Part shown: in pieces, positions 2,493 through 50,219 of the stretch | Numbering within the stretch: the stretch's first letter is position 1 | How the letters are laid out: every line of letters starts with the position of its first letter | Assembly: GCA_001724265.1 (NCBI GenBank) | Contig: MEDY01000011.1 | Coordinates: 124,001-188,000, forward strand | Reading direction: 5' to 3' | Origin: Rhizaria sp. SCN 62-66 | Taxonomy: Eukaryota | DNA length: 64,000 nucleotides | Notes under the pieces: generated by a model | Told to the model about the DNA's origin: nothing | Databases searched by the model: none | Seen by the model: the letters and a program-made list of their open reading frames with translations, nothing else | Program-made: the position numbers and the translations under genes

Positions 2493-5400
2493 ATGAGAGC
2501 CGGAAGCGGGCGCAACATGCGCCCTCACCTGCAATGGCTTGTCACCTGCGCCTTCGTCTGCTTTTTGCTTTTTTGCTCGAGTGCGCTCGCTGTAGACCAC
2601 ACTACAGTCTCGCTTGAGTTCTCGAGCTTGCCCACTCGCGACGCGATTAGCGCGACCGTCACGGCCTACCTCAATGTTCGCACGACAGTCACGACGCTCC
2701 CCACGAACGAGACTGACGGAGGGTTTTTCTCGATCATCTGTGATCATGAATCCATCACTTCGATTTCGTCCGTCAGCAGCAGTGGTACCACCGCTACTGT
2801 AACCCAGATCAATGGTCCTCTTGGAGTCGTCTCGGGGATTCAGTCCGGTGATCCTGCGTTGATGGGTGGGGTGCTCACGCTCGCTGTCGTGCTCCCTCTC
2901 TCGGTTGTAGCGCCCGTTTACCTCAACACTGCTGCCAGTCACAAGCTCCCTGCGAATCTCTGTTCGAGTTACTTCACCAACAAGGTCCGCGAGCGCTTCA
3001 CAGTCTCGTCACCTGCGACAACCTTCACGGCTCTACCGGACTGGACAACGGCACCCTTGGTAATGATGAGCTCGGGCATCACCGCCGCTAAGCCCATTGT
3101 ATACTCTGGATCTACAGGGAAGGCGCAGCTGAGTCTGTCGATTGCAATCCTGCACGCCTACCAAATCACGTCCATGAATATCGAGTTTATCTCCCCGTGC
3201 ACCGGCGGCTCCTTCGCGGCGGCGACTCTTGACTCGCAACTCTCGACTGTGACCGTGTCTTCTGGCACAGGCTCGGCAACCTCCGCGACCATCAATTTTA
3301 ACACCTATGACGCTCCTCTTAGCCCTTTCACAATCCTTGTCATTGACGGCGTACAACTGGATCCGTCAACTTCCGTAGCGTCCAACAACCTCAAGCAGTG
3401 CTTCAAATTGACCTTTTTTGGTTCAAGCTCTACGACGCTGATCCCTGCAACGACATTGCCTACGTCTGCTTTCTTGATCCCGAACACGGCGCCCGCGCAT
3501 CTGATGGTCACAACAGCACTGCCGCAGATGCTCGGCTCGACATACTGGGTCGACACATACGTTGCTGCGCCGGGCACACCCACAGTTAACTATGTCATCA
3601 CAGTTAACTCAGACCCGGTGACTTGCCCGCAGGCGTTGCAGACGTGGACATCGCCGAATCTACCTGTTGAAAAGTCCACACTGATGCTGAACCAGACTCT
3701 TATGCGCGATGTCAGTGACTTGACGTGTACCGTGACAGTCTCAAGCAGCGACAGCACGTGGATTCGCTCCTCGTTTGCGGCCGCACGCTTCCTCGTGCAA
3801 TGTACATCGGTGCCCACATCACTGTCATGGATTCGGTTGCGTGTGACGAACATTATGACCGAGACAGCGACACTGCCCGAGGGCTGTTGGACAGTCGAGA
3901 CTTCGGCCTCTCTCACTGCGCCCGCTACGTCTGTGCGCACGATGAATGCACCGTGGACTGTGCAGCCCTCTTCCGCGATCACCTTCGATGTTACTCGTCG
4001 CACCACTGACAGCAACGCGCTTCGCTTCACCTTAGGAGGGAGTGCTGGCAAAGACATCGACGTTCAGGTTCATCTGCTGACTCTGCCGCATTGTCCTGCA
4101 GCAGACCTGTTCAAATCGTATGCGAGTTCGACGTACATGTCTTCACTGAGGAATGTCGACTCCACTACAGCGCTCTTCTCCTCGTCGCCGTACCGCACCA
4201 TGCGCATTCTGTACACGTCCACGAATCCCTCACAAACGACTCGGTTTCAGGTTGCGTCTACCGCTCTGAACAACGACAACGTGGTTAAGATCCCCCCGGG
4301 GTGCTTGCAGTCCATGCTTATTGTGAACGGTGCATTACCACCCCTTGTGTTGCAGTCAACGGTAGACGTGTCGATGTCGCTTTCTTATAGCACCTATTCT
4401 CAAAAATCAATCAACCTTGATATCAAATCAATTGTGCTGCCCGCTCTATTTGCAAATCCTGCGGCAACCGTCTTTGGCAACCGCTTCGACCTGAATGACG
4501 TTACCTATCCGAGTACCACAAACGGCGGTGATCGCAAATATGAGGTTACATGGAACGCACACTGCCGTGCTTGGACGTTGAACACAGATGCTTCTGTCCA
4601 CAAGCTAGGCACAGCTGAAAACAACATTGGTAACTGTCCCGTGGCCAGTGTGACGGCGAACTTTCTTGACATGCGCTGTCAAGATAGTCCGACGAACTTC
4701 CGGCTACAGTCGGCGTCCTTTCAGTCAACTATGTACACCATCACGTATCCTCCTGCCGTTGATTGTTTTAGTCTCATCGCGCGTCGTGGTACAAATTCTA
4801 GCTATCAATATGCCTACACCATCTCCACCTCTAACTCTAGTCTTGTCCCCAATGTCGGTGTCTCTATCGCCGATTTCAGTGTGCGCTCATTGGTGGCAAC
4901 TTCTATCACACTCAGCTTGCAGATCGCCGTTGTAATCATGGCCGGCACCACCAGCGTCGTCGCCCTGGAAATCAAGAAGACTGGCGCTGCTTACTCCTGG
5001 TCAAACAGCGGCACGGGCAATGCAGCTCTCACGACCACGACTGTCGCGCATTGGGGCTCTGGCTCGAGCAGCTGTACTGGCAGCGTCAGCAGTGACAATT
5101 TTTTGCTGTCGTGCACACCACGCATTGTGAATAGTGTCATTACATCTCTGCCGGCTCCTTTGGGTATCGGTATCGATTCGCTTGTCGCTGACTTCAGCTC
5201 TCTTTCTTCAGGCTCGCTACCCAGCGCTGCCATCTCGGTTTCAGGCTCAAACAGCGTTTACACTGCGGCGGACATGCCGTTGCCTGACGTGTCTTCGCGC
5301 GGCATCGATCACGCGCTCGTCGCGATGCGCGCCCTCACCGACGACGACGGCTCCACAATCGTACGCGTTGTCGCTAAGTTCTTCATCTACCGCACTTCTG

Positions 5401-8400: not shown

Positions 8401-11400
8401 TCGACATCGAACTCACATCGTACTGCCTTAACTCGTTCCTCTTCTCCTCACCCACGCTTACTTCAGTGTACAACGCCTCGAGCACGGGCGAGGATCCGCT
8501 GGTCGAAGATTGGACGCTGGCAAGTTCCTCCGCAACCAAAGTCACACTTTCGTGCTCAAACCCCGTTTGCTTCACTGACGATAAGTACATGCGCTTCCGC
8601 CTCACGGGCCTCGTGTTCAACCTTGACACAAGCGGCGCGCAGCAGCTGGCCGCACTGCCGGGCCGTTGTCTGCAAGTGACGTCGACGTTCGAGGACGTTG
8701 TCTACTCGCGACCGTCAGTCGTTAAGCTGCCGCTACCAACTGCTGGCTCGCTGAGTCACTTTGTGCAATCGACGTCGTTGGCGCAGGACACCGCGATGCA
8801 GGGGCCTGTCGCGGCTGGCAACTATATTGCGATGACATTCACGCGTCTGTTTTTGCGTGCGAATGACAAGGTTCGTCTCACTCTCCCGACCAGCCTCTCG
8901 ATCGCGACGGGTGTGGCGCCCAGTGACTCATCTAACGCTGTCATCCTCTCTGTGTTTAGCTCTGACAACGCTGTGACACGCACATTATCCTGCCGCATTC
9001 CATGCAATCTTGTAGTTCCCACCCTGGTGTATGAATCGACGCAGCCCCTCGTGTGTACGCCCGCGAAGCCTTGTCATGTCTATATGCCGACTGGCACGTT
9101 CTCCACGGTTCCGCTCCCGATCCTCATCGACGCGTTCATCACGCTCTCGATCACGCCCTCAACGCCGTACACCTACTTACCGCGCTCGAATATTGTGCTG
9201 AGCTTTTCTGTGAATCGCCTTGATCGCTTGTCTCTTCCTGACCTTGGGATCACGAACATCGTCACCAGTGCCGAAACCACCGCAGATCCCTACGTTGATG
9301 GTTTCACGCTTGACTTTGATATGCCCGCTATGCCCCGTCTTAGTATGTTTAAGCGTTTTGCTCTGGTGATCACATTCAGCACATCTGTCTCCATCGTGAC
9401 CCCGTTTGATGTAGCGAAACTTGTTGGCTCCACACCTGTCGGCTCTGTGGGACTGTTAAGTGCGAACGGTCGCGAGCTGCGGCTGTCTGTCGCTTCGCCC
9501 ATCGTGGCCTCACACATGCGCATTGCAGGACTGATCTTTGGAGACGCGCTGTGCGTCAACACGCCCACTGTGTTCGAGAAGTCTGGTGTGTGTGCCGCCC
9601 CCAGCTTTACCGCCAAGATTGTCACTGAGCTCGACACGCTGGCCGCGGAACTGGCCACTGCTGGTGCCTCCCCTCCCGCTGCGCTGGTTGCTGAGCGGGA
9701 CCTCAGCCGTATTGTTACGGAAGGTGAAGTTGTTGCAGTCTCCAAGAGTCCGTTCACGTTCAATCCCGTGTTCACGCCTGAGTCGTTCTGGCATACGCGT
9801 GTAATCAACGAGACTGCCACAGCAACAGGCTACACCACTGTTGCCGAGTTCAACTCCCCCGTCGACTTCATGTTCGACACAACACCTGGTGGTCATTTTG
9901 TGCTCGAGATTTCCGCCGCGTCAGCCGCCACCATTGCCGGCTTCATCGTCACTGACGCTCAACTTGAGTTTATTGGTGCCGAGATGGGTCTTACTCTTGA
10001 CATGGTTGTTGACGGCGCCAACAACAGGCTTTGGAGCGTCGGCATCGCAGACCCATCCCCCTTTGCCTCTCAGCTCTCGGATGGTGCCTCGATTGGACTC
10101 ACCCTCACAATTGACTCGGCCACGCTGCGCCTAGCGCCCGTCACAGCAGTTCTTCGCATCGTCCCCGCCGCGAACGCTGTTGGCCGTCTGGAAGAGGCGT
10201 TCCTGAAGCTGCCGGCGTCCGACCGTCTCAGCGACGCTGCTGGCACGTCGACGTCGCTTGTCTTCCCCTGGACACGCAACACTGCCTCGTTGTCGTTGGC
10301 CATCTTTGCACCACCGTTCGCTCCTCTTCGCACTAACGCCGCGCTGACTGAGTTCAGGTTGACCTTTAGCTTCACTGGCGCGGAGGTCTCTTCGTGCAGT
10401 GCTGTTAAGAGTGTATATCTGGTGAACTCCGGCGTGGACAGTCCCAGCAACTACGCGACTGACGCTGTGGAGCTCACGTGCACCGCCACCGCGACGGAGA
10501 TCGTCTGCGCGCTTGTAGATGTTTCAAACATTGTTGCGCGTACTGACACGCTGCAGTTTGTGCTTAAATCATGCGTCAAAACGCCCATGAGCTCTGCAGT
10601 CACGTACTCTGGTAGCGTGGGTTTGTACGTCTCTCCCACCGCCTCCGGTGGCGCGTTCGACCTGTACGGACACAATCCTATCACGCAGACCCTGTTCGCG
10701 CTGCCTCGCGTGGCTCCTGCTGTGTATACTGACGCTGTGACCGCGAGCACGATCGTTATGAACGCGAACACAAACCTCTTTGGTGTCACGTTTGCATTTG
10801 TTGGCACGGCAGGTACAGCGCTTTGTCCCTACACTCTGCCTCGCAATGGTGCCATTCGCGTTATTGTGCCTCAGGAGGCGCGTACTAAGTACGTACTGGA
10901 CAAGCTGCCGTCGTTTCCCGCCCCGATGGTGACTGTGCGCGACCCTGATAACTTGGGCTACCTTATCACAAATGCGGGTGGTGTAGAGCTCTGCGACGCT
11001 GTCAGCACTACTACGTGGTTGTCGTACAATAACGGCTTCTTCCACCCACTTCTAAACTCGACGAACGCGTACAATATTGAGTTCGGCACTCTTACGGATG
11101 CGAATGTCTTTATCTCTGACGTGGCGTTCACTAATGTCGTTGTTAACTGGGTCGCACTGCCTCTTTTGGGTATGGTCACGATCTCCAACCTCAACATTGA
11201 CGCTGCGAGCTTCACGCAAACGGTCGGCGACAGCTCCGTGGTCGTGAATGTGAATCTATCTCCCCTTGCTGCGAGCGTCACGCTCACCCAGCTAGATGTC
11301 CGCATGACGTCTACAGACGGCAACTGCGTTTTTGACCCCGTTCTCGCGACGCGCACGCCCTCGACTCCCTTCACCAACGACCCGCTTGTCCCTGAGACAG

Positions 11401-14400
11401 TCGAGGTGATGATGAATTCCCTGTCGCCATCGACGATCTACCTCCGCGCACGCTCTAATAGCACGACACCCAAAACGCTGATGATTGCGCATACGATCCA
11501 TGGCTTGCTGTGCACACCTGGCACGCGTAGCTTTAAGTTTGCTCTTGTCGATGCGCTTTCGCATGTGCGCGTGAGCAATGAAATTGAGTCGTCGATCTTC
11601 ACGGTTGGTTCGCTGCCCGTAACGGAGCCTGATACCGACCCGGCTGATGCACCTCGCACAATGTGCCACGTCTTTGCGACGGCGGCGAGCCCACGTCCGA
11701 TATCGCTGCCGGCGGAGATGCGTCCTCTGAAGATCGTTGCCGGACAGCTGTACGACATCTACTGCACAGTCACATTACCCCGCACTTGGGTGCCTGGCCA
11801 GCTGCTGTACCTTCCTCTGGGTCGCGGATGGGAACAAGTTGAGGAACGCGAAATTGCTGTGCAAAACGCAAATAGCGTTTCTGCAGCGACAGCAAACAAC
11901 TTTACCTGGCAGACTGCGGAGAATGTACCGCCGGAGCGTCGTGTGGCTGTGTGGTATTACCGCGTGTTGGCTCCGCTGCTGGATGACATCGAAGACTATG
12001 ATTTTGGCACGTTCCATAGCACTGTAGCACTGCGCAACACAGAGGTCGCACCGGCGACTGACGTACCGGATCAGAACCTGGGATTCATCTTCTCTTGGCT
12101 CGATGTGCTGTCTGTCTCGACGAGTCCTGCGAGCAACATTCCCTACGGTATCGCATGTCTCTCTCTTGAAAACTATGCGCCACCGTACACTTTTACTGGC
12201 GGTTCTTACTACCTTCGTCTGATCGTGCCTATTGAGCTGCCAATCTATTCGCTCTACGCCCAGAGCTCTTCGGTTGACTCGCAGTTCAGCAAGTTCGCCA
12301 CGATCAAACGGCGGACAGGCACCACAGGTAATGCGAATATTGGTCTTACGCAGTCGAATTCGCGACTCACTTCAACCGCGTCTGAAACAGAGATCCGCTA
12401 CTTTATTTCTGACAGCATGAATTCTAAGAACACCTACGACATCAAATTGTGTCTGTTTGATATCCAGACCGCACGGGATCTGGCGACGATGCAGCGCCTT
12501 CTGACAACTGGAGACACACCGATGACGCTGACTATAGTTAATTACTATTTTGATTTTTGGACGTGGAGTTACGTTACAGATGTCAAGACAACCTACTCTA
12601 ATTTGCGCATCGCATCTGGTCTCTCGTCGACGATGGAGCAATCAGCGAACCCGCCCCAACTAACTGTGTTACCCCACCCGGAGTCGGGTGTGATCGGCTA
12701 CCACTTAGAGCCGCATGTTGAGACTCGTTCGCGCTCTGGTGCTGCAGTGTCGATCCGGTATGGCTTTACGGCCAGCTCTATCACATCATCGACGATTGTT
12801 CTCGCGTTCATGATTCCACAATACCTGTTGACATCAACACGTGCTACCTCGGTCAAGGTTACCAACTCTGACGGTGTCTTCACCGAGGACTACCCCAGTG
12901 AAGGCGTATCAGCCGACTGCTCCAGTAGTTTCAACAACATGGTCGCCACACTGCCGCGTCGCAGTCATGACGTCAATGTCACAGCCGAGGACGCGCGCGC
13001 AGCGTATCGGCTTAGTACGAGTCCCACATCGTGCTACAGGGTCACTGTCAGTAGCACTCTTGTCAACGCCATCAAGGAACGCTCTGGCACTATCGATGTT
13101 ACTTTGTTTGCACTCAGCCAAGAGGTGCTCTCAGCCCCGCCCCGCGAAGGTACGCTTTCCATTGTTGCATTGATGCCGAGCCCGAGCACCTTTGAAGGCA
13201 AGCCGCTCTATTCCACGACGTGGGCACTGTCGTACCCGATCCAACCGCTGCCTCACGACATCACCGCCGCCGTCACGGTTATGTCCGCAGGCTCATCGCC
13301 TGTGATTGACACCGTGCGCAACGTCGCTACCACGATTATCTACCGTCTGCACCAGAATGGCGCTGTGACGCAGTGCCCGCTGACCACAGGCGAGGACTCA
13401 GCGACGCTGCAAGGTACCTACACTGAGTCCGCTTGCTCGCCGGCAGTTGATCTTGCCAACTATTTGCGTCTCACAGTCGATGTCGCTGATGGTCGCAAAC
13501 ACGAGGGTGCGCGTGGTGCTATCACGCTGTCTCCGGACGAGATGTTGCTGCTGGTCAACTTCAATAACCGCGTTGTTGTCGCGATTCGCCGCGATCCTAT
13601 TTTCGGCACATTCATTCGCGACCGTGGTAGCACTGAATCTTACGACATCTCGCCGTACCTCGAGGCCGCTGACGAAACGTTTGACGCTGGTGGCTCGCGC
13701 GCTGCGAGTCACGCCGTCGCTCCGTTCATCCTCCACGACTATACGTCGTCTTACGGGCCTAACTTCTACGTTACTGTCGTTGTTGGACTCCGCATCGTGT
13801 CGTTCCGTATGACCTATGGTGCCGCGTCGCTGTGGGTGCTGACGGACAAGCCTGTTTTGTTTGCGCACTCTGGTGCGATCAGCGTGCCTCGTGCTCTACG
13901 CCAGGAGCAGCCGACTGTTCTGCAGGCACGCAACACGCAATCGTTTGTCCTGTGTCAGCGTGCACTCTGCATCATGTACCAGCGCAATTCAACCTACTCC
14001 GTGGTTGTCCGCGCAGAGTTCACGCTTTCAGATGCACTCACTTCTGTGCCGAAAGTAACTACCAATGATCTGAGTTCAGGCACCCGCCCCGGAACCATCT
14101 CCGTGGGTCGTGCCCTGCCATGGATTCTGACAAAGGACTACGACAACAATCTTTACGTGCCTGATGACGAGCTCTATTACGCCTACGTGCTGGGTAAGCA
14201 GCGTATCGCTATCTCGCGCATTACCGGTTTGCGCACATACGCGCCCGCGTCGAGCCGTCGCATTGCGTACGTTGATGTGGTTGCGCTGCTGGGCACGGAA
14301 ACCGAAGTTCTGGGTGTGGCGGGCGTGATCCCCACCGGAGATGGCTCTGCTGTCGTCGACGTCATGACCAAGGCCACTTCATGGAGTGAGAGCAATCGCG

Positions 14401-17400
14401 TCGGTGACTTACATCGTCTCTTCTTCACGTATGCAGACACAAAGTACTCGACTACCACCACGGATTTGCCTCTTGTGTCGATTGCTGAGCGTGCTCTGCT
14501 CGCCGACGTGCCTGTGCCGGAAACGCAGTACCAGTGGGACGTGCTGCGCCCCCGTGTGTCGATGGACGGCCGCATGTACACGACGATCCGTCCTTACGTG
14601 CCTGTGGCGACCCCGGCGTCGTCTTACAACGGCCCCGTGCTGCGCGTGTACGGTCTGCGGCTGGCGTACCTTAAGAGCGAGGACCTGCTTGCGGCCGATA
14701 TGTACATGCACAAGCCGAGCACCCGTAGTAACGCAATGAAGGTTACACTTCGCCACCCGCGCCGCTTTATGGTGAAAAACACCATGACGCAACACATCGC
14801 GATGGATTACGCCGTCTGGCACGACTTACCTAATAACTCAAACCGCCCTACTGCGACTTCGATTTGCGCCTCCCGAACCAACGATAAAACGTGGTCGATG
14901 GCATCTAACAACCAGACGTCCGACGCATCCATCGTGGTTATGGACAATAACGACTATCAACAGGCGCTTGTGTGCGAGCAGACTGTTGCTTCGACGTGTT
15001 TTGATGTGCGCAGCAAGTTCCACGCCTACCCTGTGGTCTCCGTCACCAGCAACACCAACAGCAGCCTTGTCTACTTTGAGCGTGCGCTAGAGCGCACTGT
15101 GCATATGGAGGCCGCACCATCATCTCTTGTAGCAATTGCGCTCCGCAACTGTGTGCCAATTTCTGGTGCCTCATGCGATATGTTGATTGTAGTGACTATG
15201 TCCTCGCCTACCGATGTTGCTGGCCTGAGCATTGCGCCGCGCTTTGTTAATTTTGATGCTTCCTCAGCTCTCTCGCTGACGTACACTACTGAGCTTGGTA
15301 ACACCGGAACCCTTGCATGCTCTGTTCCGAACAATTTGCGTCGTGATTGCACCTTTGGAACGCGTGGGGCTGGCGTTACATTGTGGATTCCATTTGGCAC
15401 GTATACCCTCACCAACAATGGCATGAGCACTGTTGTCAAAAACTCTCGCTCGTTGCCTTTTGCGCGCCTCAGCGGAGGTGTCCAAGCCATGCGTGCACTT
15501 GCCGCGACCACTGCAGCCACGGGCGACGTTACGGGTGTGCTCAGCGGGTACAAAGTCCTCGGCTCCACCGGCACCCTTTCCACCTCGCGCGCGCTTCGCT
15601 TTGCAGGTGTCACGTCTGACTGGCGCGAGGGTGCGATGTGTGCCACCGTATGGGGTGCCAACACCACGCGCTGCATGTCCGCAAGCTTCGGTGAAAACGG
15701 TGTGAGACTGCAGTCACCTGCCGAGCTTGTGCTGGACCTGCCCACACCGCCGGCCGATGTGCAGCGCGTGTTTCTGCCCTCTGGTGACACCTTTGGCTGG
15801 AGTCAGTCTCAGCATAAGCTCTACTTCTGGCGTTATTGCGAAGAATGCACGGCTGGCAGTCCATTTTTCAACCCGCTATCTAGCACAGAACGCGTTCGTT
15901 CATTGCTTAAGGTTCGTGAGATCACACAGCCTGCCCCCATGTTCCCTGAGGGCTCGCTTATCCAGCGCTTCCACGTGCTTGCGTCAACGCATCCCGCGCG
16001 CGGTGCCTTTGTGCTGGCCATCGATCAGTTTGGCCTCACATTGCCGCTTCGTGTGGACCCTCGAGGCAACGGCTTTTCGCTTCGTACGGGCAAGGCTGGC
16101 AGCACTAACTGGTCTCCTCTTGCCTCTGGTACAGGCATCTGGAATGCCTACACTACGCAGATTGGCGGTGGCTCGCTCGGCGCGCAGATCACTGCCATTG
16201 TCGACTGGACGGACCTGACTGTGATCAGTCCCACCGTATTGACGAGCATTCTTGTTGCTTTTGAGTCAGGTGCGCTTGTTCACTACTCTGCTCCTGTACT
16301 CGGTCGCACCACCTCTGCATCTGCTTCAGCTAATCCAACCGCAGCCGATCTCGCACTGCCTATCACGCAGCGCGTCGTGCGCAAGCCTACAGGAACTGGT
16401 GCTCTTCGCGCTATCGCTGTATCGATCGAGTGGGGTCTCTTCTTCACTGCAGGTGACACAGGTGCCATTTTTTATGGATTCTTCCCGCGCAACACCAGCG
16501 CGCTTGCGGCTAGCTTTGGCGACATCTCGCTCACACGCGTAACTGATCTGCGTCTGCCGTGCAGTGTGACCAGTCTCGCCCTGAACCCGCTCGGCACTGT
16601 GCTCGTTGCAGGCTGCTCCTCTGGCTACTTGTACTCGCTACGCGTTACGCTCGCATCCTCGCCGGCTACGCCCGCTGCGCCCGTCACTGTCGCGTTTGCA
16701 TTCATCCCGCGAGACCCGACTAAGAAGCGCCTTAGCACGGTGCCTACGTTCCTGCAGAGTTATAACACGCGCTGGAGCGACCTGACACTGGTCAACAGCT
16801 ACGACCAGGCGTTCTTTGACCGCACATACACGGACGCATTTGCCCTGCGCACGCAGTGGGACACCGTGCACGACGTAGCGTTCCACTTCTTTGGTTCGCA
16901 CCTTATGGTGCTTGGCTCCAACGCTGCTGTGAACTCCGCGAGTGCGGCCTGGTCAGTGGCGACGTATCATCTCTCACACCCAATCACGGGACTACAGTAC
17001 ACTGTAGCTGACAACTCGCTGAACCAGATCACGACGTGGTCTATTCAGGCCAATATGCCGCCCGTTGTCTACTCCGATGCGCCACTCTTCTGCCGCCTCG
17101 ATTTCCCGCCCACAACTACCTTCCCGTCTTTGACGCTCACCACGACATGGACCGGTGCCACTGTTACGGGTGCCACTGCCGTTGCCGCCCCGTCAACCCT
17201 GGAGCGTTCGCAGCTTCAGTTCAAGCTGGCATTGGGCTCCGACTCCTCAATGGGCGTTTTCAAGCTTACTATTGCTGGCGTGCAAAACCCGTCTCAGCTG
17301 TACGATAATCTCGACGATATGACATTCGTGTGCCGCATTGCAGACCCGCTGGACGCGACTGCGGTCACAAATCTGGACCGCTTTAACACCGGTTTCGAAG

Positions 17401-20400
17401 TGGCGCGTGTCAGCAACGGTATTCTCGCTGGCATGCTGTTGAGCGCGGAGCTGCAGCGTGTTGATGGCACAAGCGTCGAGTCACTGCCGCACTACACCGT
17501 TGGCCGCACTGTGGAATTGCAAGTTGTTTTGTCGACGACTGCGACGTCGGACCCTATCGTGATGAAGGTTGAGGCGCTCGACCACGACTCGAATGCGCAG
17601 AATAAGTGCGTTCTTTCGGCTACGGAATCTGAGTACACGTTCGCGACCTTTGGCTCTGCCACGGACATCGAGGTCACCATAGCCGTTGGGACCAGCACAA
17701 TTAATTTCTATATCCACTGTTTGACATCGACATCTGTTGCGGGAGCCGATGGTATTAAGCTGCGGCTCAGCTCCAATTCGGCCGTTGCGCATATCGCCGA
17801 CTTTATTACCGGTGTTTTCCACGTAATGCCGTCTGTCACGCCCTCGGTGCAGTACCGTGAAGCTTTCCCCAGCACTACAGTGCATGACAATCCTGACAGC
17901 TTTCCTTCATCCGCTGATGTCAACATCATCATCAGCTGGGACTCGCCCGTGTATGACAGCAACGTTCTTATTCGCATCCTCACGAACGCACTTGATCAGT
18001 GCACGTTCCGCGACACTCTCTATACTGCGCTTCCCGAGGCCTCGACTTTCGACATCCAGATTGGCACTAGCAACTCGTACGTAAACGCAACTTTGATGCG
18101 CTACGAAGGTGTCCTGATGAATTGCGTCCAGATTAACCCGTCCGTCATTATCACCACAACGCATACGCAGGGCCTCGTCAACCTCGTTGACGGTGGTAAC
18201 CAGCGTCCTCGCGTTGTGTATGGTTCGGCTTATCTTGAAGAAGTTGCCGGTTTCGACATTCCTATCAACGCTGTGCGCCCCTTCACTGTCAACATTCGCC
18301 CGCGTGCGCAGGTTACGTCTGACTTGACCGTCCAGCTGCTGCGTAATAGTATCGCCATGACCAACACACCCTGTCGCCTCCGCACCACTGCCGCTGGCTC
18401 TGAATCCGTCGAAATCACGGTGACAGTTCCTGTGAACCAAATGCAGGTGACGGCGTACATCATATGCACGCAGTCTTTCTTCCTCCGCGAGTCCATCGAT
18501 GTACGTCTGACGTACTCTGGTGCAAGCACTGGCTTCGAGATTGTTCCCACGAATAACGTGAAGGCATACAACCCGAACTCGGTCAGCAACTTCTACAAAC
18601 TTGATGGCACTCTGATGATTTTGGCGGGGAATGAGACGACGCACAGAACATCATCTGGCACCGCCCTTGAGATTGAAAGCATCTTCAGTTACCCTATCAG
18701 CCGTGCCACCATCATGGTTTTCTTAGCGCCCGTCGCTTCATCCTGTCGCTTCTCCAAGACCGCCATCAAGTATAGCTCGATGACCACCGAGTCAATTCCA
18801 GGCTTCGCGTTCATGTCTGACGGTGTGACTCCGGCAACGGGTATCTTCTACAACCTTGAGACTGGCGCTTTGAGTGACCGCGTATACGTGGCGTGCATGG
18901 GCACGGCTGGGCCGAATCCGCTGGAACGTCAGATTCTGTCTGGTGATAATATTAAGTGGACGCAGCTTCCTAGCATTACTATCCGTCATGAGCTGCTGGT
19001 GCGCACCACCGCTGTGGGCAACCGCAACAACTACTTGTACGGCGCGCTGCAGGCGCTTGTGATGCACCCGCTCGAGTTGGTAATTTCGCCGCCTTGGGAC
19101 GGTGCACAGCCTGTTAAGGTGCTCGTGACAGGTCCTCCGGAATGCACCTTTGTCGAGGGCACTGATTTTATCAATACGATCCCGACTGAAGTGGAACTGG
19201 GCACGGTCAACCTGCAGCCCGAGTTCCTCCGCTCGATCACTCCTGGCACCAGTTCGATTGCGCTGCGTCTGTACTGCCCACTGACGAGCGTCGGCGGTGC
19301 CGTCACCTTCAACATGGTCGTCCCTGATCCCAGTGATGGCGAAACGCCAAGTGAGCAAGCCCATCGCGAGGCGTACGTCGGCTTCACTTCGCTTACCTTT
19401 AACATCAACGGATTTTACGATCTGGTGTGGTTTCATGATACACCTGACGGCGTGTCGACGGTCGTGTCTAGTTCGACTGCGCCTACCGTGCCTATTCCGG
19501 CCGGACTCATCTACAACGATGCTGTTGTGCGCATTGAAGCCACGATGCGGCCGCTGCCCGTCGTGAACAATGATCTGAATGTTGAGATCTCGCTCGTGGA
19601 TGACGATGCTCATGCGTGCCAGCTCTCGTACAGCCCCATGCAGTCCAATATCTGGTTAGAGCAGGTCTTCACCAACACGCAGTCCGTTTTCAGTGTGTAT
19701 CTGTGGTGTGAGTCACCCACATCTCAACCTATTGCAGTCCGTTTTAGCATCAAGGGAACCACGCACGGCACGTCGTACCCGGCCTTTGATTCGACGCGTC
19801 TGCAGCCTCAGGGCTCTTTTAGCCTCAAGGATCTGCCTGATACGTTTGTGACTGCGTCCCCTGTTCGCGGCTCGATCATGCTGTCAATTCACCCTAACGT
19901 GCCGCAGCAGATCCGCATAGAGCGTTCTGACTCATCCGCTGATTGCCGCTTCACCTCGGCTGACAAGATCGCAGACACTGCGAGCTACACAGCAACAGCT
20001 GTGGTGACACAGTCACAGGCGCAATTCGACGATATCAGCACGCGCATGGGTCCGATTCACTTTGCTATCTACTGCCGCCGCACTCACGTCAAGGGTCCAA
20101 TGATCCGCCTTGTCTCACCTGTTGGTAGTTACGTCACTGAGACCTTTGGACCATACCAAGTGCAGGGTCGCATGTCTATCTCGTTTACGAACCCCACCAC
20201 GCTTGTGGCGCAAAACATCACCGACACTGATGCGCACCTTAACGAAGATGGCACGGAGATGCTTCCCGGCGACACCGTGACTGTGATGGAGGACCCGTAC
20301 TTCTTGCGCGCGCCTAAGACGGATCTGCGCAGCTTTGTGCTGCAGATGGCGCCCGCACTGTCGGCGCAGACCATTGTGCGTGTATCCCTGTCCACCATCC

Positions 20401-23400
20401 GCGGCTCGTGCGGTTTCGTTGCCACCGACTCAGGCTCCACCGGCAACGGTGGCGGCAACACAGATGTCACGGATCTGTCGTCGACGTTCCAGGTTCTCTT
20501 CTATCTTGGAGACTCTCGTGTGTCTTTCTCTGTGGCGTGCCGCGAGGCTACGACTGAATTCCCCTACCTCATCGCTGAGTCTATTGCCGGTGAGCGCTAC
20601 ATCACGTCGTTGACACGACCGCTGCGCGTTCGCGGATACCTCGAGTTCGCTGACCTGACCAACATGGTCTCGCCTGTCACGGCGTGGACTGTGAAGTCCT
20701 TCTCGATCCGCCCAGTGCCGCTGCCGACAGAGGAGACCGTGATCCAGGTCACTGACGGCAGCGTGGCTGGGTCCACTAACAACTGCGTGTTCCGCCTTTA
20801 TGGTGCAACGACAGAGTATGTGGCTTCACCATTCAACTTTACGTACACTTCGACGATGGCGACGCAAGAAATTGCTCTCTACTGCCGTCGGGTTGACCAG
20901 ACGCAGGCGACAGCATTCACGCTCACAGCTCTCAACGACATTTACTTGTCGACCACATCCTGGTCCGTGAACTTGCGCGGCTCTGTGTGGATTGAGGACG
21001 CTGTCGCCAACGATGTGTTCGTTGTCGCGCCACCCACGCCTAACCCGCTCGACACAATCCGCACAGCCAAGCCGCATCATTTGCGTCTGCGCTTCCGACC
21101 CGCAGTTACGAGTCCCACGGCCTTCTCCCTGCAGTCCTCGATCCCACGCTGCCTGGTCTCGCTGACGACCACTGCCACTGCAACCTCGATCACTTTCACG
21201 GTGCCTGTCAACACTGAGACTATGGACGCATATCTCGTGTGCTCTGAGACGCAGTCCACGATGCCTGGTGTTGCGCTTACTCTACGCCCGCAGAGTGGCG
21301 CCGTCTTCTACGTTGCCTACACTACTGCGACGGCGCCGGTATACAGCACCTTCGTGCTGACTCTTCCGTCTGGTGCCCCCATCACGTCGATCCACATTCG
21401 CGAGCCCAACCGCCTGAAGCTCATCTTCGAACCCACTGCGGGGTTGCCGCTGCTTACCCAGATCCGCGTCACGGTGCCCTCCACTGTCGAGGGCAGCTGC
21501 GTCATTGCCGCCGAGCTTGTGGGTACTGTGCCTGCGGCGCCCGCAACGGAGTGGACGTCGACACGTCTCTTCAGTGCTGCGGCGGGCAGTCGCGAGCTCT
21601 ATTTTTGGGTGCGCTGCGACGACTACACTCGTGACCGCGGATTTGACACGAACAAGCTCCCCGTGTTTACTGTCACCCGTGAGAGTGGTGAACTCTTCTG
21701 GCCTCTGACCACGGCGCCTTTCGAGACGTACTATATCACGTGCCCTGTGTTTAGCGATGTTTCCAACGGCCTCATCACGACGACTGCTGGTGAGTTCGGT
21801 CCGCGCGGCTATGGCAGTGTGTTGACGTACTCATGTGATACGGGCTACAACCTGAACACGACGCAGTCCAACGCCGCGGTCCCTGCCGACTGCTCTTCTG
21901 CCACGAACGCATTCGGCTTGTCAGAGTCGACATGCCAGCAGCAGGTGCGCTGCGCGTGGGACGGCTGGGCGGCGGAGCGTATGCCCGTGTGCTCTTTGCA
22001 CGTGTGCTCTGTGATTAAGGCCCCCACGTTCGGCTCGATCACACGCACACTTGGCTACAGTGCCGGCGAGTCCACCTTTGACGCCGGCGCTGCGTTTGCC
22101 TGCTCTGTCGGTTACTATGTCGAAGGCTCGAGTAATATTACGTGCACGCGCGGTGGCTGGAGCGCCTCCGTGCCACAGTGTCTCGGTGTGGTTTGTCCTA
22201 CTCTCGAGGCGCGTGAGGGTGTTGACGTTGAATCAGTGTCCTTCACCACAACGCCGCCGCGCTACACCTCCACTGCGACCTATGTCTGCCCCAGTGGCTA
22301 CCGCGCTGTGCTTAACAACACGCGCCGCTGCCTGGCGGACGGCACGTGGGACGGCGAGGTCGGTGTGTGCACCACCAGCACGTGCACGCCGCTGCTTTAC
22401 GACAATGCGCGCATGGTGCCAATGACTTATCGCAATCAGCAAGGAACTACGCTCCCGTCGCGCGACGTGTACGACGAGACGACGACAGCAACGTACGCTT
22501 GCAAGCCGGGCTACGAGTTCAATGTAAGTAGCAGCTCGCATACTACGACTCGTACATGCATTGAGAACACGTGGATGCCCATTTATGTGCCTGTGTGCAC
22601 GTATCGCACGTGTCCCACGCTCACTCGTTCTTATGGTACCATTACACAGGATCCTACTTCACTAGCAAATAAGTTCTCGGTGAACCTCACTATGACTTGC
22701 GCGTACGGCACGCTTCCGGACCCTACGAAGGCCACTGCGATCTGGTGCAACGAGACTGCGCAGTGGAACAACGAGCTCACAACGTGTGAGCCTAAGTTCT
22801 GTGGCGCTCCGACTTCGGGCTCGTTCATGACCGTGGATGTTGCTGACGGCGTGTCTAAGTTCGGCGTCAATTACAACTCGTCCACAGCCGTCTACCGTTG
22901 CTCTGACGGTTATGATATGACGTACGCCGGTTACAGCCCCAGCGACGGCACTGGTGTTGTGTCTTACCGCACGAGCTCGCTGCAACTGCGTGCTACACGC
23001 ATTTGCTTGCCCGACGGCTGGACTCCCTCCGGGACGCCGCAGTGCAGTCTTCACGTCTGTAGTGCGCTTACTTTGCCAAGCAACGTCAAGGACATTCTTT
23101 ACACATCACCCTCTGGCCTCAACACGACGAACTCTGCCACGAACGCTGTCCGTGTGTATCTCAGTACGGCGCTGTACCGCTGCGAGACTGGCTACGAACC
23201 GCGCGACATGCTCAACACGTCGATGCCGCACACTGCACTCCGCACTTGCCGCAACATTGATATTGGATGGGACCACACTGAGCCAGTGTGCACCCCGTAC
23301 GACTGTGGTCCGGCTGATGAGATCCCGCACATGGGCTCGATCACGTACAGCTACAATCCTGTGGTGACGCCGACGCCGACGAGCTACCGCTCCAATGCGA

Positions 23401-26400
23401 TCTACACCTGCGCCGAGGGCTTCGTGATGGAGTCTGGTGCGGCCAACGCCACGCGCGTGTGTAGTGGACCTGAGCTTGGGTGGTATCCCGCCGCTCCAGT
23501 CTGTGTCGACGTCGACGAGTGCGACCCCAACGGCGGGTATTTCTTCGATTGCGCTGCGGCGTACGGCTCAAGCTCGCGGTGCATCAACACGTTTGGCTCG
23601 TTCGTCTGCACGCCGTATGTGACAAGTTCGCCCGCGCTTGAGGCCGTTGTGACGGAACAGCAGTACACGTCGTACATGCTCAACCCCGAGCTGTACCCGC
23701 TGCCGGCCACCGTCGACGCGTCCACGCGCACGATTAACCCTTCCGACGCGTCTGGCAACCAGCCCATACAGTTCTCTGTCGTGCAGGGCCGCAACCTGGC
23801 TGCGCCCTACATTAACGCCGTTATGTTCTCTAATCCCAACGTCGACGTTTTCCCTGGATTGCTCGACTTTGACTGCCGCAACGTTGTCGTCAGTGAGCAC
23901 GACACGTACCCAGACAAGATGTTCAGAGTGCAGTGTCTGCTGACGCCGGGCCAGGGCATGGACCTGTATCTCCGTCTCCAATTTTGCTATGCTGAAAGTG
24001 TGGAGGCGAGCTCCTCCATCAACTGCGAGACCTGGAACTGGAACTGGGATGGTCGGAGCATTAGCTATCCTGACATGAGCGCCAACAGCAACTACAAGCT
24101 TCGTTACCCTGCGCCGTCGTTTGTTGCTTCATCGCTTTTCTCGGTCACGTACGACTCCGGTCGTACCGACGACTACGTTATGCCTAGTGTCATGGGTGAG
24201 CAGATTGGCTTCGACATCAATAATCTCTACTTTGAGCGGCCCGGATTGCTGTCGATGTACATGGGTGAGGCCACGACGACGGATGACTACCCATACGAAT
24301 GTGAGATCGATATCGAGAAATCACTCGACCTTTCTACGGTCAACCGCACTCTCGTGTGCCGCGTCCCGGACATGGTCAACAAGGCCAACTTGCGCTTCAA
24401 ATTTGGGCTCGCCGGTCACATTTCCTACTCCACGGATCAGCTCTCCTACCCGCAGATCCCGCGTGTCGACTCAGTCACTGGCTGTGCTGAGGCCATCAAC
24501 GATGCTGATGGTGGCGTTATCATCACCTCGGGCTGCTCTACTGAAGGTACAGACTACCTGCATGTCACGGGCAACGCGTTCATTGAGCCGTTGACAGCGT
24601 TCGTACACGGTCGCCGGTGCGTCGTCGAGCAATACATTGATTCGACCAACTTTTACTGCCGCGTCCCCGTTGGCACCGGCTCAAGCTTGACGTTTATCGT
24701 CAAGGCTTCGACGCAGACCGTGCAGGTCGACAACATGCTCAGCTATGGAGCACCTACCATTGACTCGGTCGAAGGTTGCACCATGCCTGCAGCGAACTCG
24801 CGGACTGTTCTGAACTGCGCCCGTCAGGGCGGCAACGTGCTCGTGCTCCGCGGTCGCAACTTCGGTTACGACGGCGCCACAGTCTCTATCGGCGGCATCT
24901 CGTGTCTGTACGTTGAGCATGACCGGAGCAACTCGATGAACGCGTCGCTGCCGCACCGCGTTGTACGCTGCCACGTGCCGCCTGGCACCGGGCTGGACCA
25001 GCAGATTGTTATTTCACAGCGCTACGGTGCTGCGTCGACACAGCCTTTCTTCTTGTCTTACGTGCAATGCACAGTAGGTACATATGAGCGCGGCTACTCC
25101 TGCCAGGCGTGCAACCAGGGTGAATACAACAATCGTACAGGCTCGCAGGCACAATGCATGCAGTGCCCATCCGGCACACATGCGCCTGCGTTCGGTGCGA
25201 CCGAGTGTCTTGAGTGCCCCGCAGGCACGTACTCACCTTTGGGCTCGGCCACGTGCTACAAGTGCCCGCGTGGCACCTTCTCGGGTGCCAGAGCTGACCG
25301 CTGCGCGCAGTGCGTGCCGGGCACGTACGCATCGCGCGAGGGTAGCACATCTTGCGACAAGTGCGGTGAGAACGCCGAACAGACGATCGACTACGCGTAC
25401 TGCCAATGCAAGGCAGGTTACTATCAGACGCTCGGTGGCGTGTGTGCGCTGTGTGCCAAGGGTGGTGACTGTACCAAGGGTGGAATGACGGTATATAACA
25501 TCCTCTCGCTTGCGTCTTACTCGCCATCTGCGATTCAGGACTCAGTCGTCAAGGCTGTGCGCGTCACCATCGACTTGCGCTTGCCTGCAGTCACTACCGC
25601 CGAACAGGCTGCTGTGCGCACGCTTGTCATCAAGGTTCTTTTTGATGACACTGATTTGCCGCAGGAGCGCGTCGTAATTGAGTCGATTACACCGCAGATT
25701 CTGGCGTCTGATGGGTACTATGGCGCACGTGTCGTGCTGCTTGTCATGCCGTCGTTCAGTCAGAACGGACTCGTCGCGCACGATACTACCACGACAACTG
25801 CTGTGTCGGAGCCTGCCTCTTTGAACGTGTCGTTGCCGTCATTCGCGGTGCTGTCGACGTCGGGCAGGTGGGTCGTCGGAGAATCTCCTGTGGCTGACGA
25901 GATTGCGTATCTGTTAGACATCATCATGGGTCTTTTCACGCGCCCAGATCAGTCTGAAGACCCGGCCAACAATGTCACACTCTCCGTGGCTGAGACTACT
26001 CTTGGTGACGCGTACGTCGCTGAGCCCACGCTCGATGAGGCCTTCGCGCGCCGCCCTGTGTCGTCGTTCCAGGAGTGCTTCCACGAAGCATGCATGTCTG
26101 GCAGCAGCTGCAGGGCGGGCCATGGAGGTAACCTTTGCACAGTCTGTGAGCCCGGCTATGGCCGCCAGTCGACCTTCACGTGCCGCCAATGCTTCAGCAC
26201 GCCTGTCCAGGCCTTATACCTTACTGCTTCGATCGTCGCTGCGATTCTTATCTGTGCCGTGCTGGCGTGGAAGCAGATCGTCGATGGCCGTAAGTCGACC
26301 AATGAGCTGCCTGCGCCTGCCGTGCCGCTGCTGTTCAAGATCGCCGTCTCTGGCATTCAGATCTTCGCAATTGCTGCGCGCTACGATGTCTATTGGCCTG

Positions 26401-29400
26401 GTATCCTACGTCCGTTCTTTGACGCCATGGACGTCATCGGCGGACTTGGTACCACGATCGCCACGCTCGACTGCTTCCTGCCCTACAATTCGTCGATCCG
26501 CCCATTCTGGGTCTCGTCCATCGCCATCATGATGCTGCCTCTGGTCGGTATCTTGCTTCCGCTCGCTGTGCTGCTGCCAAGCTATCTCTTGAACCGTCGC
26601 AACTACCACAACCAAGTCAAACTTGCACTGAAGGACCAGCGCAGACATTTGGTGATCATGGCCGAGGAGTACCTCGAGTACCTGCAGACCATGCGCCGCC
26701 GCCGCGCCGCCGAGTCTGCGCTGCAGACAGAAAACAACGTGGACAAGCCTGACAACAAGCTGGGCCACGTTAAGCCCATCTGGGACTCTGTGGACGAGTC
26801 CGGTGAGCTCGGTATTGCCGGTCACAACGAGTCGCAGCGTGCCGCGCTTAAGACCATCCGCGAGACGGCGACACTGTCGACGGGCCACCGCATCTTCGGC
26901 GATATCCGCATCCACGAGCGCGAAGACCGCCGCACGCGTATGCGAAGTGAGTCTGACGAAGAGGCCGAGCACGCACGCGCCGCGGCCGCTAAGGCTGACG
27001 GCAACATTCCCGCGACTGGTCCTCTCGCCCCGCCCGGCGTGCCTGGCTCTCCTGGAGAGCCCACGTCCGCTGGCACTGGCGCTGCGCCCAAGAGCCGGCT
27101 CGTGCGGCGCAAGCTTGTGCGGCGCGTCAAGGTCGCTCAGGCCAACAACAGCACGCACAGTGGTGAGGCTGCCTCGGGCCCGTCATCGGGCATGCCCTCG
27201 CCCAAGCCCTCGCCGCGCGCGGGTGACGTCGGCAACATCGAGCTTACAGCTCTGGGTGCTGCTCCTACTCCCGATGAGACTGCTGATGCACAGGTGACAC
27301 TCACACTGTTGCCGTCGGCGGTTAAGCCGATGGACGATGGACATGCCGAAGACGACGAAAGTAACCTGTTTGTACACGCTGATGAGCTCGACTCCGTGCC
27401 TGTGGCTGTGCTGCCGAACGCGCACGCGCACGCGTCCGCTGTGGCACGCTCGTCTGCGCCCAAGCTGCGTCAGAACGACCCGCTAGCCAAGTACCGCGCC
27501 ATGCAGGAGAAGCTCGAGCACGAGGCTGCTGCTACTGCTGCCGAGGCCGCGGCTCTGCGTGCCGGTCGCGCCACTGCTGTTGAGTCACCCTTTGAGTTGC
27601 CAACCGCTTCGGCCCCCGTCGCTGCGCCTGTTTCTGCGGCACGGCACGGCGGTGAACTAGACTTACACTTTGATAACGCCACCGCAGCTACTGCTGCGAA
27701 TGATGCGTTTGGTTTGGGTGACGAAGCAATTGTGGCCGAGGACGTTAAGGAGCTCATGTCTGGTGCGATTGCAGTCAATGCGGATGTCTTTAACGATGTC
27801 TACATCGATGAAGACGGCAACGAGTACGATTTGCGCGGCGAATACAACGTCCAGCACGAAGGCTTTAATGCCAATGAGGACTTTGACATGAGCTTCTTGC
27901 GCGAGGACAGCTACAATAACGCTGAGAACGTGCACCGGCAGCATGCCGCTCTAATGCTCGATGTGGCGCCTGTTGCCGCCGATGAGCACGCCACGCACGA
28001 ACAGTTTGTTGCCATGATGGCGCGCTACATGCCCTTCCGCAAGGATATCGACTCCGACGCCGCCGCCGCGGCTGCTACGGATAAGAGTGCCGACGGCACT
28101 GTCGCCGCTGGTGCTGTTGCACGCAGCCTGGTCAACGGTCTGGCTGTGGATGCTGTGGACGATGAGGACGCTGCGAACATCAGCTACCTCATGACTGCCG
28201 AGTTTGAGCTGCTGTACGAGTCCGAGCTCTACCGCGTGCGCGCGGTGCGCAAGGAGCGTGCGATTGCCCGCGTCCGCGCGCGCGCCAAGCGTGACTGGTA
28301 TATCAAGACCTATGGTGAGATTGCTGGTAAGAAGATGTTGCGCGAGATGGAGATCGCCGACGACGGCAAGCGCCCCACTGCGGCTGAGCTGCGCCACAAC
28401 GTCGATGTGACAGAGTCGCGGTACATGTTCGCGCCTGCAGAGCTTATCGGCTTCATCGTCACATCGATCACCGTTGTCATGTTCGTTATGCACCCCAACA
28501 TCGCCAAGCAGTTCTTTACCTTCGTGTCGTGCCACGAAATCGGCGGCACGGACTGGGCCGGCGCCAGCTACTTCCTGGGCGACATGACTGTGCCCTGCTG
28601 GGGCAGCGACCACACGACGTTCTTCCTCGCGCTCGGTCTGCCAATGGGCCTGATCTGGGTTTTCGGCCTGCCGATGTTCGCGTGCTGGTACCTGTACAGC
28701 AACCGCGGGCTGATTCAGATGCACCACTCCGGTGTGTCGTCGGTAATGCGCAAGCGCAAGCTTGCGTTTGAGTCTCGCATGGCCTTCCTGTACCGCGGCT
28801 ACCGCACCACGCGCTACTACTGGTTCCTGGCCGAGCTTTTCCGCAAGGTCGTGCTCGTGGCCATCCCCGTCTTCTTCCCCGGCGCGCTGCACACGCAGCT
28901 CATCCTCGCCGCGCTCGTCGTGTTCCTCTTCATCGCCGCCCAGGTCTCTGCGCGTCCCTTCGAGAACAAGATCACCGAGTTCGTCGAGTACTTCTCGCTT
29001 TTTAGCTCGTTCATGATCTTCTTCCTGGCCAACTTCCTCTTTATTGAGTCTGTTAAGCAAGTCGTCAAGGACACGATCAAGTGGGTCATTGTGCTCATCC
29101 TCATCTTCTTTATCGTCACTGTCGTTGTCGCATTCATCCTGTTGGCGCGCGAGGAGCTCGAGATGGGCCCATTGCGCCGCCGCATCTACGAGGCGCACGC
29201 GGCCGGTAACGACGTCCAAGTCGTCATCCGTCAGTGGCGTATCGCGCGGCTGCAGCGCCGCCGCGAGAAGTCCGGCGAGGCTGAGCTCAAGGAGCAGGCC
29301 AAGCAGGAGAAGCGCGCCCGCCGTTCCGGTGGTGGTGCAAGCGCTGCTGGTGGCTCCGATGCCAACGTGCGCAACGTTGTGCTGAACGAAGCGCGCGACA

Positions 29401-34363: not shown

Positions 34364-34411
34364 GCACACGCACACGCACACGCACACGCACACGCACACG
34401 CACACGCACAC
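34364..34411 (+). repeat. (GCACAC)8 microsatellite upstream of the Myb ATG
   Basis: Perfect hexamer repeat; it reads (AH)8 in the Myb frame. Confidence 0.9.
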
Positions 34412-34447
34412 AGCGGCGCTCTCAAGGCTAGCCTCCCTCTCAGCCTG

Positions 34448-49894: not shown

Positions 49895-50219
49895 CGAAAA
49901 CGCTTGGACCGAAAAATCTATCTCGGGCAACCTTCGGCCAACCATCGCAGTCCGGTTTCACATTTGTGTGGGTCGTAAATTCGTCATTTCTTAAAATAAT
50001 CTCACAGACCTGACATCTCACTCAATTTTTTATATGAAAATTGCAAAATCATTTGACTAACCAAGCGAGATTGCCTCCATATCCCTTTGACAGTTTCCTC
50101 TCGTCTCCAGCACCACCGCCCCTTGCTGCTTCGACTTTGCCCCCTTCTTCGCGCCCCCGCGTTCACTTCTCGGGCTTTTTAGCGCTTATTGCCCTGCGCC
50201 TTAACGCTTTTTGTCCGCG

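Follow-up and report, generated by a model that had tools for sequence, protein, structure and literature searches.

Fungal Flc proteins carry the family PF06011, with an N-terminal TRP_N/ML domain as a feature (PMC9600462), and S. pombe Pkd2 in vesicles lets calcium pass upon membrane stretch (PMC9727806), according to the parts of these reports available to us. Among altered genetic codes, the available portions of four papers describe changes of UAG alone to Leu, Gln or Ser, and UAG = Glu only when paired with UAA = Lys or UAA = Glu (PMC5304391, PMC11687900, PMC10553269, PMC12153298). Here we analyse a stretch of 64,000 nucleotides from Rhizaria sp. SCN 62-66 (contig MEDY01000011.1, positions 124,001 to 188,000; the window), which holds one giant gene at 2493-29780 (+). 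As judged from its sequence, this gene encodes a giant and lineage-specific version of a membrane cassette that is widespread but uncharacterised. On balance, and with modest confidence, we propose that the nuclear code of its host reads UAG as Glu, or perhaps ambiguously as Glu and Gln, and keeps UAA and UGA as stops; this would be a young and second independent UAG reassignment in Rhizaria, in the same genome as about 22 giant sensor genes.

The giant gene, its family and its possible function

The open frame is a real, unbroken gene. It runs as a single frame of 9,095 amino acids from an ATG (the second Met, residue 9, is a possible alternative start) to a TAA at 29778-29780, with zero internal TAA, TGA or TAG, and its GC content at third codon positions stays between 0.59 and 0.82 along the length, with a coding-like codon bias throughout. 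Four homologues are colinear with the protein over nearly its whole length, and the window gene shows no frame break. DNA contigs from public runs of other studies closely match window 10500-30400 with no supported frameshift, and one independent contig of 7,684 bases has 0 differences from the gene. The 27.3-kb gene for a surface protein of about 9,100 residues that the initial annotation had proposed is borne out by the uninterrupted frame and the matching independent DNA.

At its C-terminal end, the protein carries nine hydrophobic segments after residue 7900, three before and six after a charged loop of about 600 residues. The AlphaFold model of a loop-less homologue (P0062), built on a 64-row alignment (A2) that included window segments, reveals nine long helices at a mean confidence (predicted local distance difference test, pLDDT) of 84, in line with the roughly nine transmembrane helices and cytoplasmic tail annotated initially. 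The loop, which that annotation had overlooked together with the family membership, is nearly missing from most distant homologues and is retained at 500-900 residues in the window lineage. Polar residues inside the helices are invariant or near-invariant (His-Pro-Asn, Glu-x-x-Arg-Lys, His-x-Gln).

The module extends far beyond this genome. Searching with a profile built from helices 4-9 gives 8,456 clusters at E<=0.001, and helices 1-3 are also present in 104 of 164 fetched proteins that have helices 4-9, mostly with little or no loop outside the window lineage; word-based sequence searches returned close relatives only. Among 16 long homologues scanned, 12 carry Ephrin_rec_like and/or 7 carry DUF7630, and the ectodomains that precede the module are varied (TIG, CUB, beta-helix, RCC1, laminin G; TIG also in homologue P0059). 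We therefore find that the C-terminal cassette is of a known, widespread and uncharacterised kind, and that the giant N-terminus is lineage-specific. The earlier remark that protists have large families with a similar membrane module was right, given the number of clusters and the common Cys-rich cap. Two of the 64 rows of A2 carry a cNMP-binding and two an SH3 domain (P0150 is among these four), domains that would fit signalling proteins.

The single recurring family link of the membrane module is what appears to be a distant likeness to PF06011, which matches the membrane half in 17 of 21 paralogue segments and 27 of the 64 rows of A2; its curated cut-off is passed by 5 of 15 re-scanned paralogue segments. 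A PDB sequence search with a second alignment (A1) gave no match, and a CatSper2 match obtained with A2 (E 3e-4) was rejected since it looks compositional. Because A2 contains members of A1, a comparison between the two alignments is circular and carries no weight here. Compared with solved folds, the P0062 model reached a best E of 0.04 in Foldseek and a best Z of 7.2 in VIA-align, with none >=8 among 48,161 chains. This predicted structure thus has no clear match to a solved fold in these searches, which is not proof of a new fold.

The window gene is one of 22 paralogues (22 of 24 candidates match residues 7801-8033), a lower bound for the 34.9 Mb in 714 contigs that were searched. With TAG taken as sense (see below), 10 of the 22 are unbroken over 6,900 to about 11,000 codons, 8 are frame-broken and 4 sit at, or close to, the end of a contig or of the fetched sequence. 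Copies C19, C663 and C408 are colinear with the window protein over its whole length (51-59%), and the other subfamilies share only the region from about residue 5700 or 6400 onward and have their own N-termini; in one of them (C68, C295, C141; L011-L017, L062-L064) the different N-terminus contains a unit of about 720 residues three times. Units of the second repeat type occur in every subfamily, the full set of 13 first-type repeats only in the window subfamily and P0002. The architecture that the initial annotation did not recognise is hence not a one-off, with 22 paralogues in the genome and colinear homologues in a related species.

Close paralogues share 94-98% of their residues in the membrane core but 34-36% at the tip, and fourfold sites differ by 21-28% in helices 4-9 versus 57-67% in the repeats. 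This low synonymous divergence in the membrane core only (window 28425-29165, C19, C663, C408) suggests that the core has recently undergone gene conversion. Most of the frame breaks are deletions of 10-35 bases (C408, C212, C558, C146, C691, C295). The C212 frameshift is missing from a second assembly (L194, 99.6% identical and open over 2,726 codons); therefore at least that break is an assembly error, and the assembly may hold local errors.

For the function, we tentatively favour a long tether joined to a module that lets calcium in when gated by contact or stretch, in a phagotrophic cercozoan flagellate, with calcium entry preferred because the membrane module resembles PF06011 proteins. 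The glycosylated ectodomain of about 7,900 residues would be a chain of beta-sandwich-like units reaching up to roughly 150-230 nm, and its variable tip would bind to prey, to a substrate or to other cells. Contact or pull would travel along the conserved Sushi-EGF-IPT-GCC stalk to the module of nine helices, which would admit calcium as fungal Flc/Pkd2 proteins do, and the large loop and tail would link the receptor to cytoplasmic partners. Such a protein would work in principle like polycystin-1-type tethered sensors, without being one.

Several observations weigh against this proposal. The window protein scores 25.3 bits, under the PF06011 cut-off of 28.5; only the second half of that model is matched, and the fungal TRP_N/ML domain has no Pfam match anywhere in the window protein. 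The folded model is that of a distant homologue and not of the window protein; the close relatives are uncharacterised, and the expression evidence for the window gene is thin. Bodonin and DGF-1 share the layout and the many copies and are read as adhesins in the available parts of two reports (PMC4728078, 10.64898/2026.07.27.741050). The adhesion, prey-sensing or mechanosensing receptor or channel suggested at the outset fits the predicted anatomy, and the membrane module leans toward PF06011, but with the window protein scoring under the cut-off.

The closest competitor, which we find only a little less likely, is an adhesin or surface coat in which the nine helices are an anchor or sorting unit, and the family supplies a range of sticky tips that capture prey or mediate attachment. 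It would account for 22 copies with very divergent tips, for an ectodomain with 17-28% Ser/Thr and many N-glycosylation sequons, and for the layout shared with bodonin and DGF-1 (PMC4728078, as far as that source was available). However, an anchor needs neither nine helices nor invariant buried polar residues, and the window lineage has kept its large loop. A ligand-specific receptor that signals by conformational change to loop and tail, with GPCR-like logic (G-protein-coupled receptor) and no ion flux, is unlikely: the large intracellular loop and tail, the divergent tips and the signalling domains on some distant homologues suit it, but GAIN, 7TM and enzyme domains have no Pfam match and the sole repeated family link is PF06011. 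The calcium-entry sensor stays our preferred reading, by a narrow margin over the adhesin.

Reading of TAG in the host genome

TAG is very probably read as sense in this genome. The first six single in-frame stops that we inspected were all TAG, and five gene ends were all TAA. In-frame TAG occurs in 6 of 8 family copies longer than 8,800 codons; the family frames contain 41 TAG in 153,113 codons, 36 of them inside paralogue alignments, which cross the TAG sites without a gap in most cases. We also ran a coding-model scan over all own-genome loci and the window, with training partly on TAG-containing family frames. Coding sequence ended at TAA in 29 of 31 and at TGA in 28 of 30 cases (57 of 61 together), whereas after TAG it continued in 16 of 19, ended in 2 and was unclear in 1. 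Seven of the 16 continuing cases lie outside the family, and neither apparent end is confident, one falling within a paralogue alignment and one following a donor motif.

Of 117 hits to kinases, 8 contain a lone TAG (in exons in 5 and at intron ends in 3, by eye), one a lone TAA (in an intron) and none a lone TGA. Genes for dynein, kinesin and the proteasome offered no exonic TAG, in a set that left out one TAG of a proteasome gene and two mixed hits to kinases. A predicted protein, P0001, is copy C19 begun after the TAG of C19. In a related species (L179-L183, L187-L193; about 55% protein identity) we find 0 internal TAG in 20,010 codons, against an expectation of about 4-5; one copy apparently ends at TAG, near a contig end. 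The code looks young because TAG amounts to about 2-3 in 10,000 codons, there is one CUA tRNA gene, and the related species has no internal TAG. As a separate observation, a 695-codon frame at L021:1-2085 (+) with an internal duplication and a ubiquitin-like domain contains two in-frame TAG; its C-terminal part resembles an intramolecular chaperone or coiled coil.

The gene for a tRNA with CUA anticodon lies at G000:C84:76008-76080 (L100:1489-1561, -), on a contig that also bears kinase and kinesin genes. The pattern search gave 48 hits, 30 of which were scanned at once, one being the CUA tRNA; two scanned later gave no tRNA call, and the remainder are Ile or Leu tRNA copies or were judged by eye. 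All four of its stems are able to pair on inspection, and its minimum-energy fold is not a cloverleaf (z -1.5). The nearest tRNA is the genome's own tRNA-Glu(CTC), with 47 of 73 positions identical, in a comparison that did not include tRNA-Glu(TTC); other normal-length tRNAs reach <=40. A derivation from tRNA-Gln (29-33) was tried and rejected, the DNA search for that tRNA giving only 5 CTG copies. Six pattern hits yielded no evident UUA tRNA; one of them is tRNA-Lys, and the other five were judged by eye. The apparent family breaks at TAG are then not breaks, because the genome would decode TAG through this tRNA-Glu-derived CUA tRNA, with TAA and TGA staying stops.

The single eRF1 gene found (L055:1117-1827, -) itself contains an in-frame TAG, aligned without a gap opposite human Glu107 in the four near-identical human constructs shown; this residue is also conserved more widely. 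In the stop-recognition region (GTS and TASNIKS motifs) the protein differs from human eRF1 by Thr32Ser, Phe56Tyr, Gly57Ser and Thr58Lys. The TAG may be a feedback switch, and at the observed rate such a TAG would be present by chance in about a tenth of cases. In that case excess release factor would truncate its own synthesis at this codon, so that UAG stays readable.

The amino acid inserted at TAG is probably Glu. The only TAG columns with >=5 homologues and 80% agreement are Glu (36/38 and 5/5; one lies in a frameshifted copy, and an intron-end site was left out), and the sum of Pfam scores over 6 genes is 1.5 bits higher with Glu than with Gln. Leu, as in the rhizarian exLh, was rejected with scores 12.8 bits lower. 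Two results count against Glu: at 19 TAG sites (two others were dropped, an intron end and an out-of-frame overlap) the nearest paralogue has Gln in 7, Glu in 5 and other residues in 7, and plain likelihood at the TAG sites is -44 for Gln versus -53 for Glu. These same figures are the case for Gln, or for both Glu and Gln, which we regard as rather unlikely. A ubiquitin-like copy with TAG where its paralogues carry Gln adds to that case, as does the limited identity of the CUA tRNA to tRNA-Glu; CUA tRNAs are often charged with Gln. But the Gln columns are variable, the well-conserved columns, the eRF1 site and the Pfam sum all point to Glu, and the tRNA is far from tRNA-Gln. Moreover, Gln may be inflated among the nearest relatives because a TAG that arises in one step most often comes from CAG.

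It is improbable that TAG is still a stop, with the in-frame TAGs explained by nonsense mutations in decaying copies, by errors of sequencing, or by their removal through splicing or RNA editing. TAG is indeed very rare in the family codons and missing from the exons of four dynein genes, 8 of 22 copies are frame-broken, many TAGs within hidden Markov model (HMM) hits are intron 3' ends, and the coding model had seen TAG-containing frames. Yet the sole eRF1 gene found is crossed by a TAG, five kinase domains hold an exonic TAG against no lone exonic TAA or TGA in the 117 hits, no gene end at TAG is confident, and a CUA tRNA exists. Finally, the second assembly repeats three C212 TAGs without repeating the C212 frameshift.

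Domain anatomy, host and neighbouring genes

Table 1. Features of the giant protein and neighbouring genes in the window, with the evidence for each.
Feature	Position	Strand	Evidence
Signal-peptide-like N-terminus	2493..2597	+	hydrophobic residues 13-35, hydropathy 2.46; like N-termini in paralogues
13 diverged type-1 repeats, ~155 residues, conserved Cys	2583..8708	+	leave-one-out HMM; no Pfam family
Ser/Thr-rich region, ~1,490 residues	8709..13172	+	no Pfam match; no type-1/type-2 unit >=8 bits
Conserved Cys-poor region A	13173..14792	+	25% invariant, 5 homologues; no Pfam match; no periodicity
Conserved Cys-poor region B, possible beta-propeller	15693..16982	+	27% invariant; WD40 E 0.076 only
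11 type-2 repeats, ~125 residues, Cys pair each	17463..21734	+	HMM shuffles; no Pfam family
8 Sushi/CCP repeats	21735..23507	+	PF00084 E 1e-32, 6 stretches; 8 by Cys pattern
EGF-like, calcium-binding type	23508..23612	+	PF07645 (EGF_CA) E 0.005, under cut-off
IPT/TIG domains	23613..25067	+	PF01833 E 7e-11; 2 by Pfam, space for 4
Cys-rich GCC2/GCC3 (Ephrin_rec_like) repeats	25068..25472	+	PF07699 E 3e-9, over cut-off
Cys-free juxtamembrane segment, ~200 residues	25473..26072	+	no Pfam match E<=10 for 25473-26009
DUF7630-like Cys-rich cap	26082..26192	+	PF24633 E 8e-4, under cut-off; also in distant homologues
Membrane helices 1-3	26199..26594	+	hydrophobic segments, homologue model; with cap 95-98% identical in close paralogues
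Charged, nearly Cys-free cytoplasmic loop, ~600 residues	26595..28424	+	between helices 3 and 4
Membrane helices 4-9, PF06011-like	28425..29165	+	PF06011 25.3 bits vs cut-off 28.5; alignment A1; homologue model
Cytoplasmic tail, ~200 residues	29166..29777	+	hydropathy; no Pfam match
BCDHK/PDK-type kinase (neighbour)	2-1408	-	
DEAD-box helicase (neighbour)	31187-33200	-	one intron (GT..AG)
Myb-domain protein, 1,900 residues (neighbour)	33890-39556	+	
Protein kinase (neighbour)	41731-45858	-	
MCM4 (neighbour)	50211-53204	+	
HSBP1 (neighbour)	55914-56435	-	

Most of the domain string proposed initially stands (Table 1). The predicted signal peptide has its hydrophobic stretch and similar paralogue N-termini, and the count of about 13 first-type repeats holds: with units anchored by eye on a Cys motif (residues 31-2072) and leave-one-out HMMs compared with 100 shuffles, 6 of 13 beat all, 4 were matched by 1-3 and 3 are unsupported, so that 10 of 13 are matched by at most 3 of 100 shuffles. 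The 11 repeats of the second type (residues 4991-6414) are likewise upheld, with 9 beating all 100 shuffles and 2 matched by one. The two profiles are unrelated to each other (0.2%, hhalign). In an atlas search, the first type gave only weak leads and the second weak leads to LapA (14% of members) and Big_2 (13%), all with scores <0.9; a single-sequence fold of residues 4990-6169 was unusable (pLDDT 32). The Sushi, IPT and Ephrin_rec_like assignments also agree with Pfam, and the calcium-binding EGF holds with weak support.

Two of the proposed domains are unproven. For the propeller-like regions, residues 3561-4100 have no Pfam match, residues 4401-4830 reach only the WD40 value in Table 1, and hhalign found no internal periodicity at 30% probability; the regions themselves are conserved, with 25-27% of positions invariant versus 9% in the type-1 repeats. 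The SEA-like domain fell within the juxtamembrane stretch that Pfam leaves unmatched. Residues 1-6400 as a whole have no useful Pfam match at E up to 10.

A quick tree of MCM4 (one gene, 42 of the available rows) places the host in a 20-row clade with a Shimodaira–Hasegawa-like approximate likelihood ratio test (SH-aLRT) value of 96; the only named member is Paulinella chromatophora, and Plasmodiophora and a foraminiferan fall outside. About 11 dynein heavy-chain loci suggest flagella. We read the host as a probable long-branch filosan cercozoan, and a divergent small-subunit rRNA gene suggests a sainouroid identity as a candidate only. This 18S rRNA gene (L018; C706:4459-8903) is very divergent and spread over 4.4 kb by several large insertions that by eye resemble group I introns, one of which may contain a homing-endonuclease frame. 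The ubiquitin genes (L019, L020, L023, L158) are divergent monomers with a two-residue N-terminal and a short C-terminal extension; no in-frame polyubiquitin junction was found in them, a result uninformative on Rhizaria.

Whether the giant gene forms one exon among intron-bearing neighbours, as initially stated, can be answered in part. The missing frame break and the colinear homologues agree with one exon, and the RNA cover is made up of short low-depth contigs: in a polyA run these reach 28 of the 30 bins between 10500 and 30400 and show no joint, which is weak transcript evidence because DNA may be mixed in. The best-matching public runs carry the labels bioreactor, wastewater and activated-sludge metagenome; runs X7-X11 contribute small shares only, which say nothing on habitat or expression, and uncovered bins in runs X5 and X7 prove nothing. 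As for the neighbours, the DEAD-box gene has a clear intron, but MCM4 gave a single matching block. The host genome commonly has long single exons, and we note kinase domains within open frames of 3,000-7,100 codons (C53:73526-74485, C81, C536, C32, C42). That the 27-kb frame comprises more than one gene, undergoes heavy splicing or results from a chimeric assembly is highly improbable: no single read or contig spans it, the RNA cover is patchy and paralogue C89 holds a true GT..AG intron, but against this stand 9,095 codons without a stop, colinearity with C19, C663 and C408 over the whole length and with P0002 over most of it, identical independent DNA contigs and only one signal peptide.

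Comparison with known systems

The module is common to thousands of uncharacterised proteins with no solved structure, and here a 95%-conserved core stands behind variable tips, which makes the family a good handle on contact and prey sensing in free-living protists. For the code, there are few cases in which UAG and UAA differ in meaning, and a very rare TAG beside a seemingly standard-code relative could show how a stop turns into sense at its early, ambiguous-intermediate stage, a matter still debated in code evolution. There is also a practical side, since gene callers truncate host genes at TAG, as for P0001 from C19. The literature on PF06011, GCC2/GCC3 and bodonin yielded no description of the receptor family. 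The main texts covered, few of them subscription papers, describe no code that reads UAG as Glu and keeps both UAA and UGA as stops, and supplementary code tables could bear on this.

Fungal Flc/Pkd2 proteins (PF06011 with TRP_N, PF14558) bear a distant likeness to helices 4-9, under the cut-off for the window protein, and likewise have an extracellular N-terminus and a cytoplasmic tail; the window protein differs in having no TRP_N/ML domain, its enormous ectodomain, its loop and its 22 copies. Canonical TRP channels and polycystin-2 have a six-helix subunit with a pore loop, in contrast to the nine hydrophobic segments here and the nine long helices of the homologue model. Polycystin-1 is likewise a giant ectodomain on a multi-pass module, yet its membrane module is different, and none of the polycystin-1 or adhesion-receptor domains PKD, REJ, GAIN/GPS, PLAT and 7TM was found by Pfam at E<=1 or E<=10. 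SVEP1 and plexins share Sushi, EGF, GCC or IPT domains, as pointed out initially, but the likeness goes no further than these mobile domains: they carry VWA, pentraxin, HYR or Sema domains and are secreted or single-pass, whereas the window protein is multi-pass and has no Pfam match to any of the four.

The protist proteins with Ephrin_rec_like, DUF7630 and nine helices have a homologous membrane module under the same GCC/DUF7630 cap; CUB, beta-helix, RCC1 or laminin G domains precede it there, and two unannotated repeat types in proteins of 7,000-11,000 residues in the window family. The window protein is about three times longer than bodonin or DGF-1. Bodonin (Bodo saltans) and DGF-1 (Trypanosoma cruzi) are likewise multi-copy, with a Ser/Thr-rich ectodomain, 7-9 helices and a cytoplasmic part, in the portions of the sources available (PMC4728078; 10.64898/2026.07.27.741050). 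Unlike them, the window protein has no beta-helix or DGF-1 Pfam match, and the membrane parts are likened by layout alone.

The proposed code resembles known UAG codes in its in-frame UAG, its UAA still serving as a stop, its CUA tRNA and its altered eRF1 motifs. As far as the available parts of the literature describe them, UAG alone is reassigned in the rhizarian exLh (Leu), Iotanema (Gln), phyllopharyngean ciliates (Leu, Gln) and Scotinosphaera (Ser), and together with UAA in the ciliate PL0344 (UAG Glu, UAA Lys) and in Blastocrithidia and peritrichs (UAR Glu). The Glu-derived CUA tRNA is shared with PL0344, whereas the great rarity of TAG in the host sets it apart from the known UAG codes, and its eRF1 changes differ from those of exLh (Leu69 is kept).

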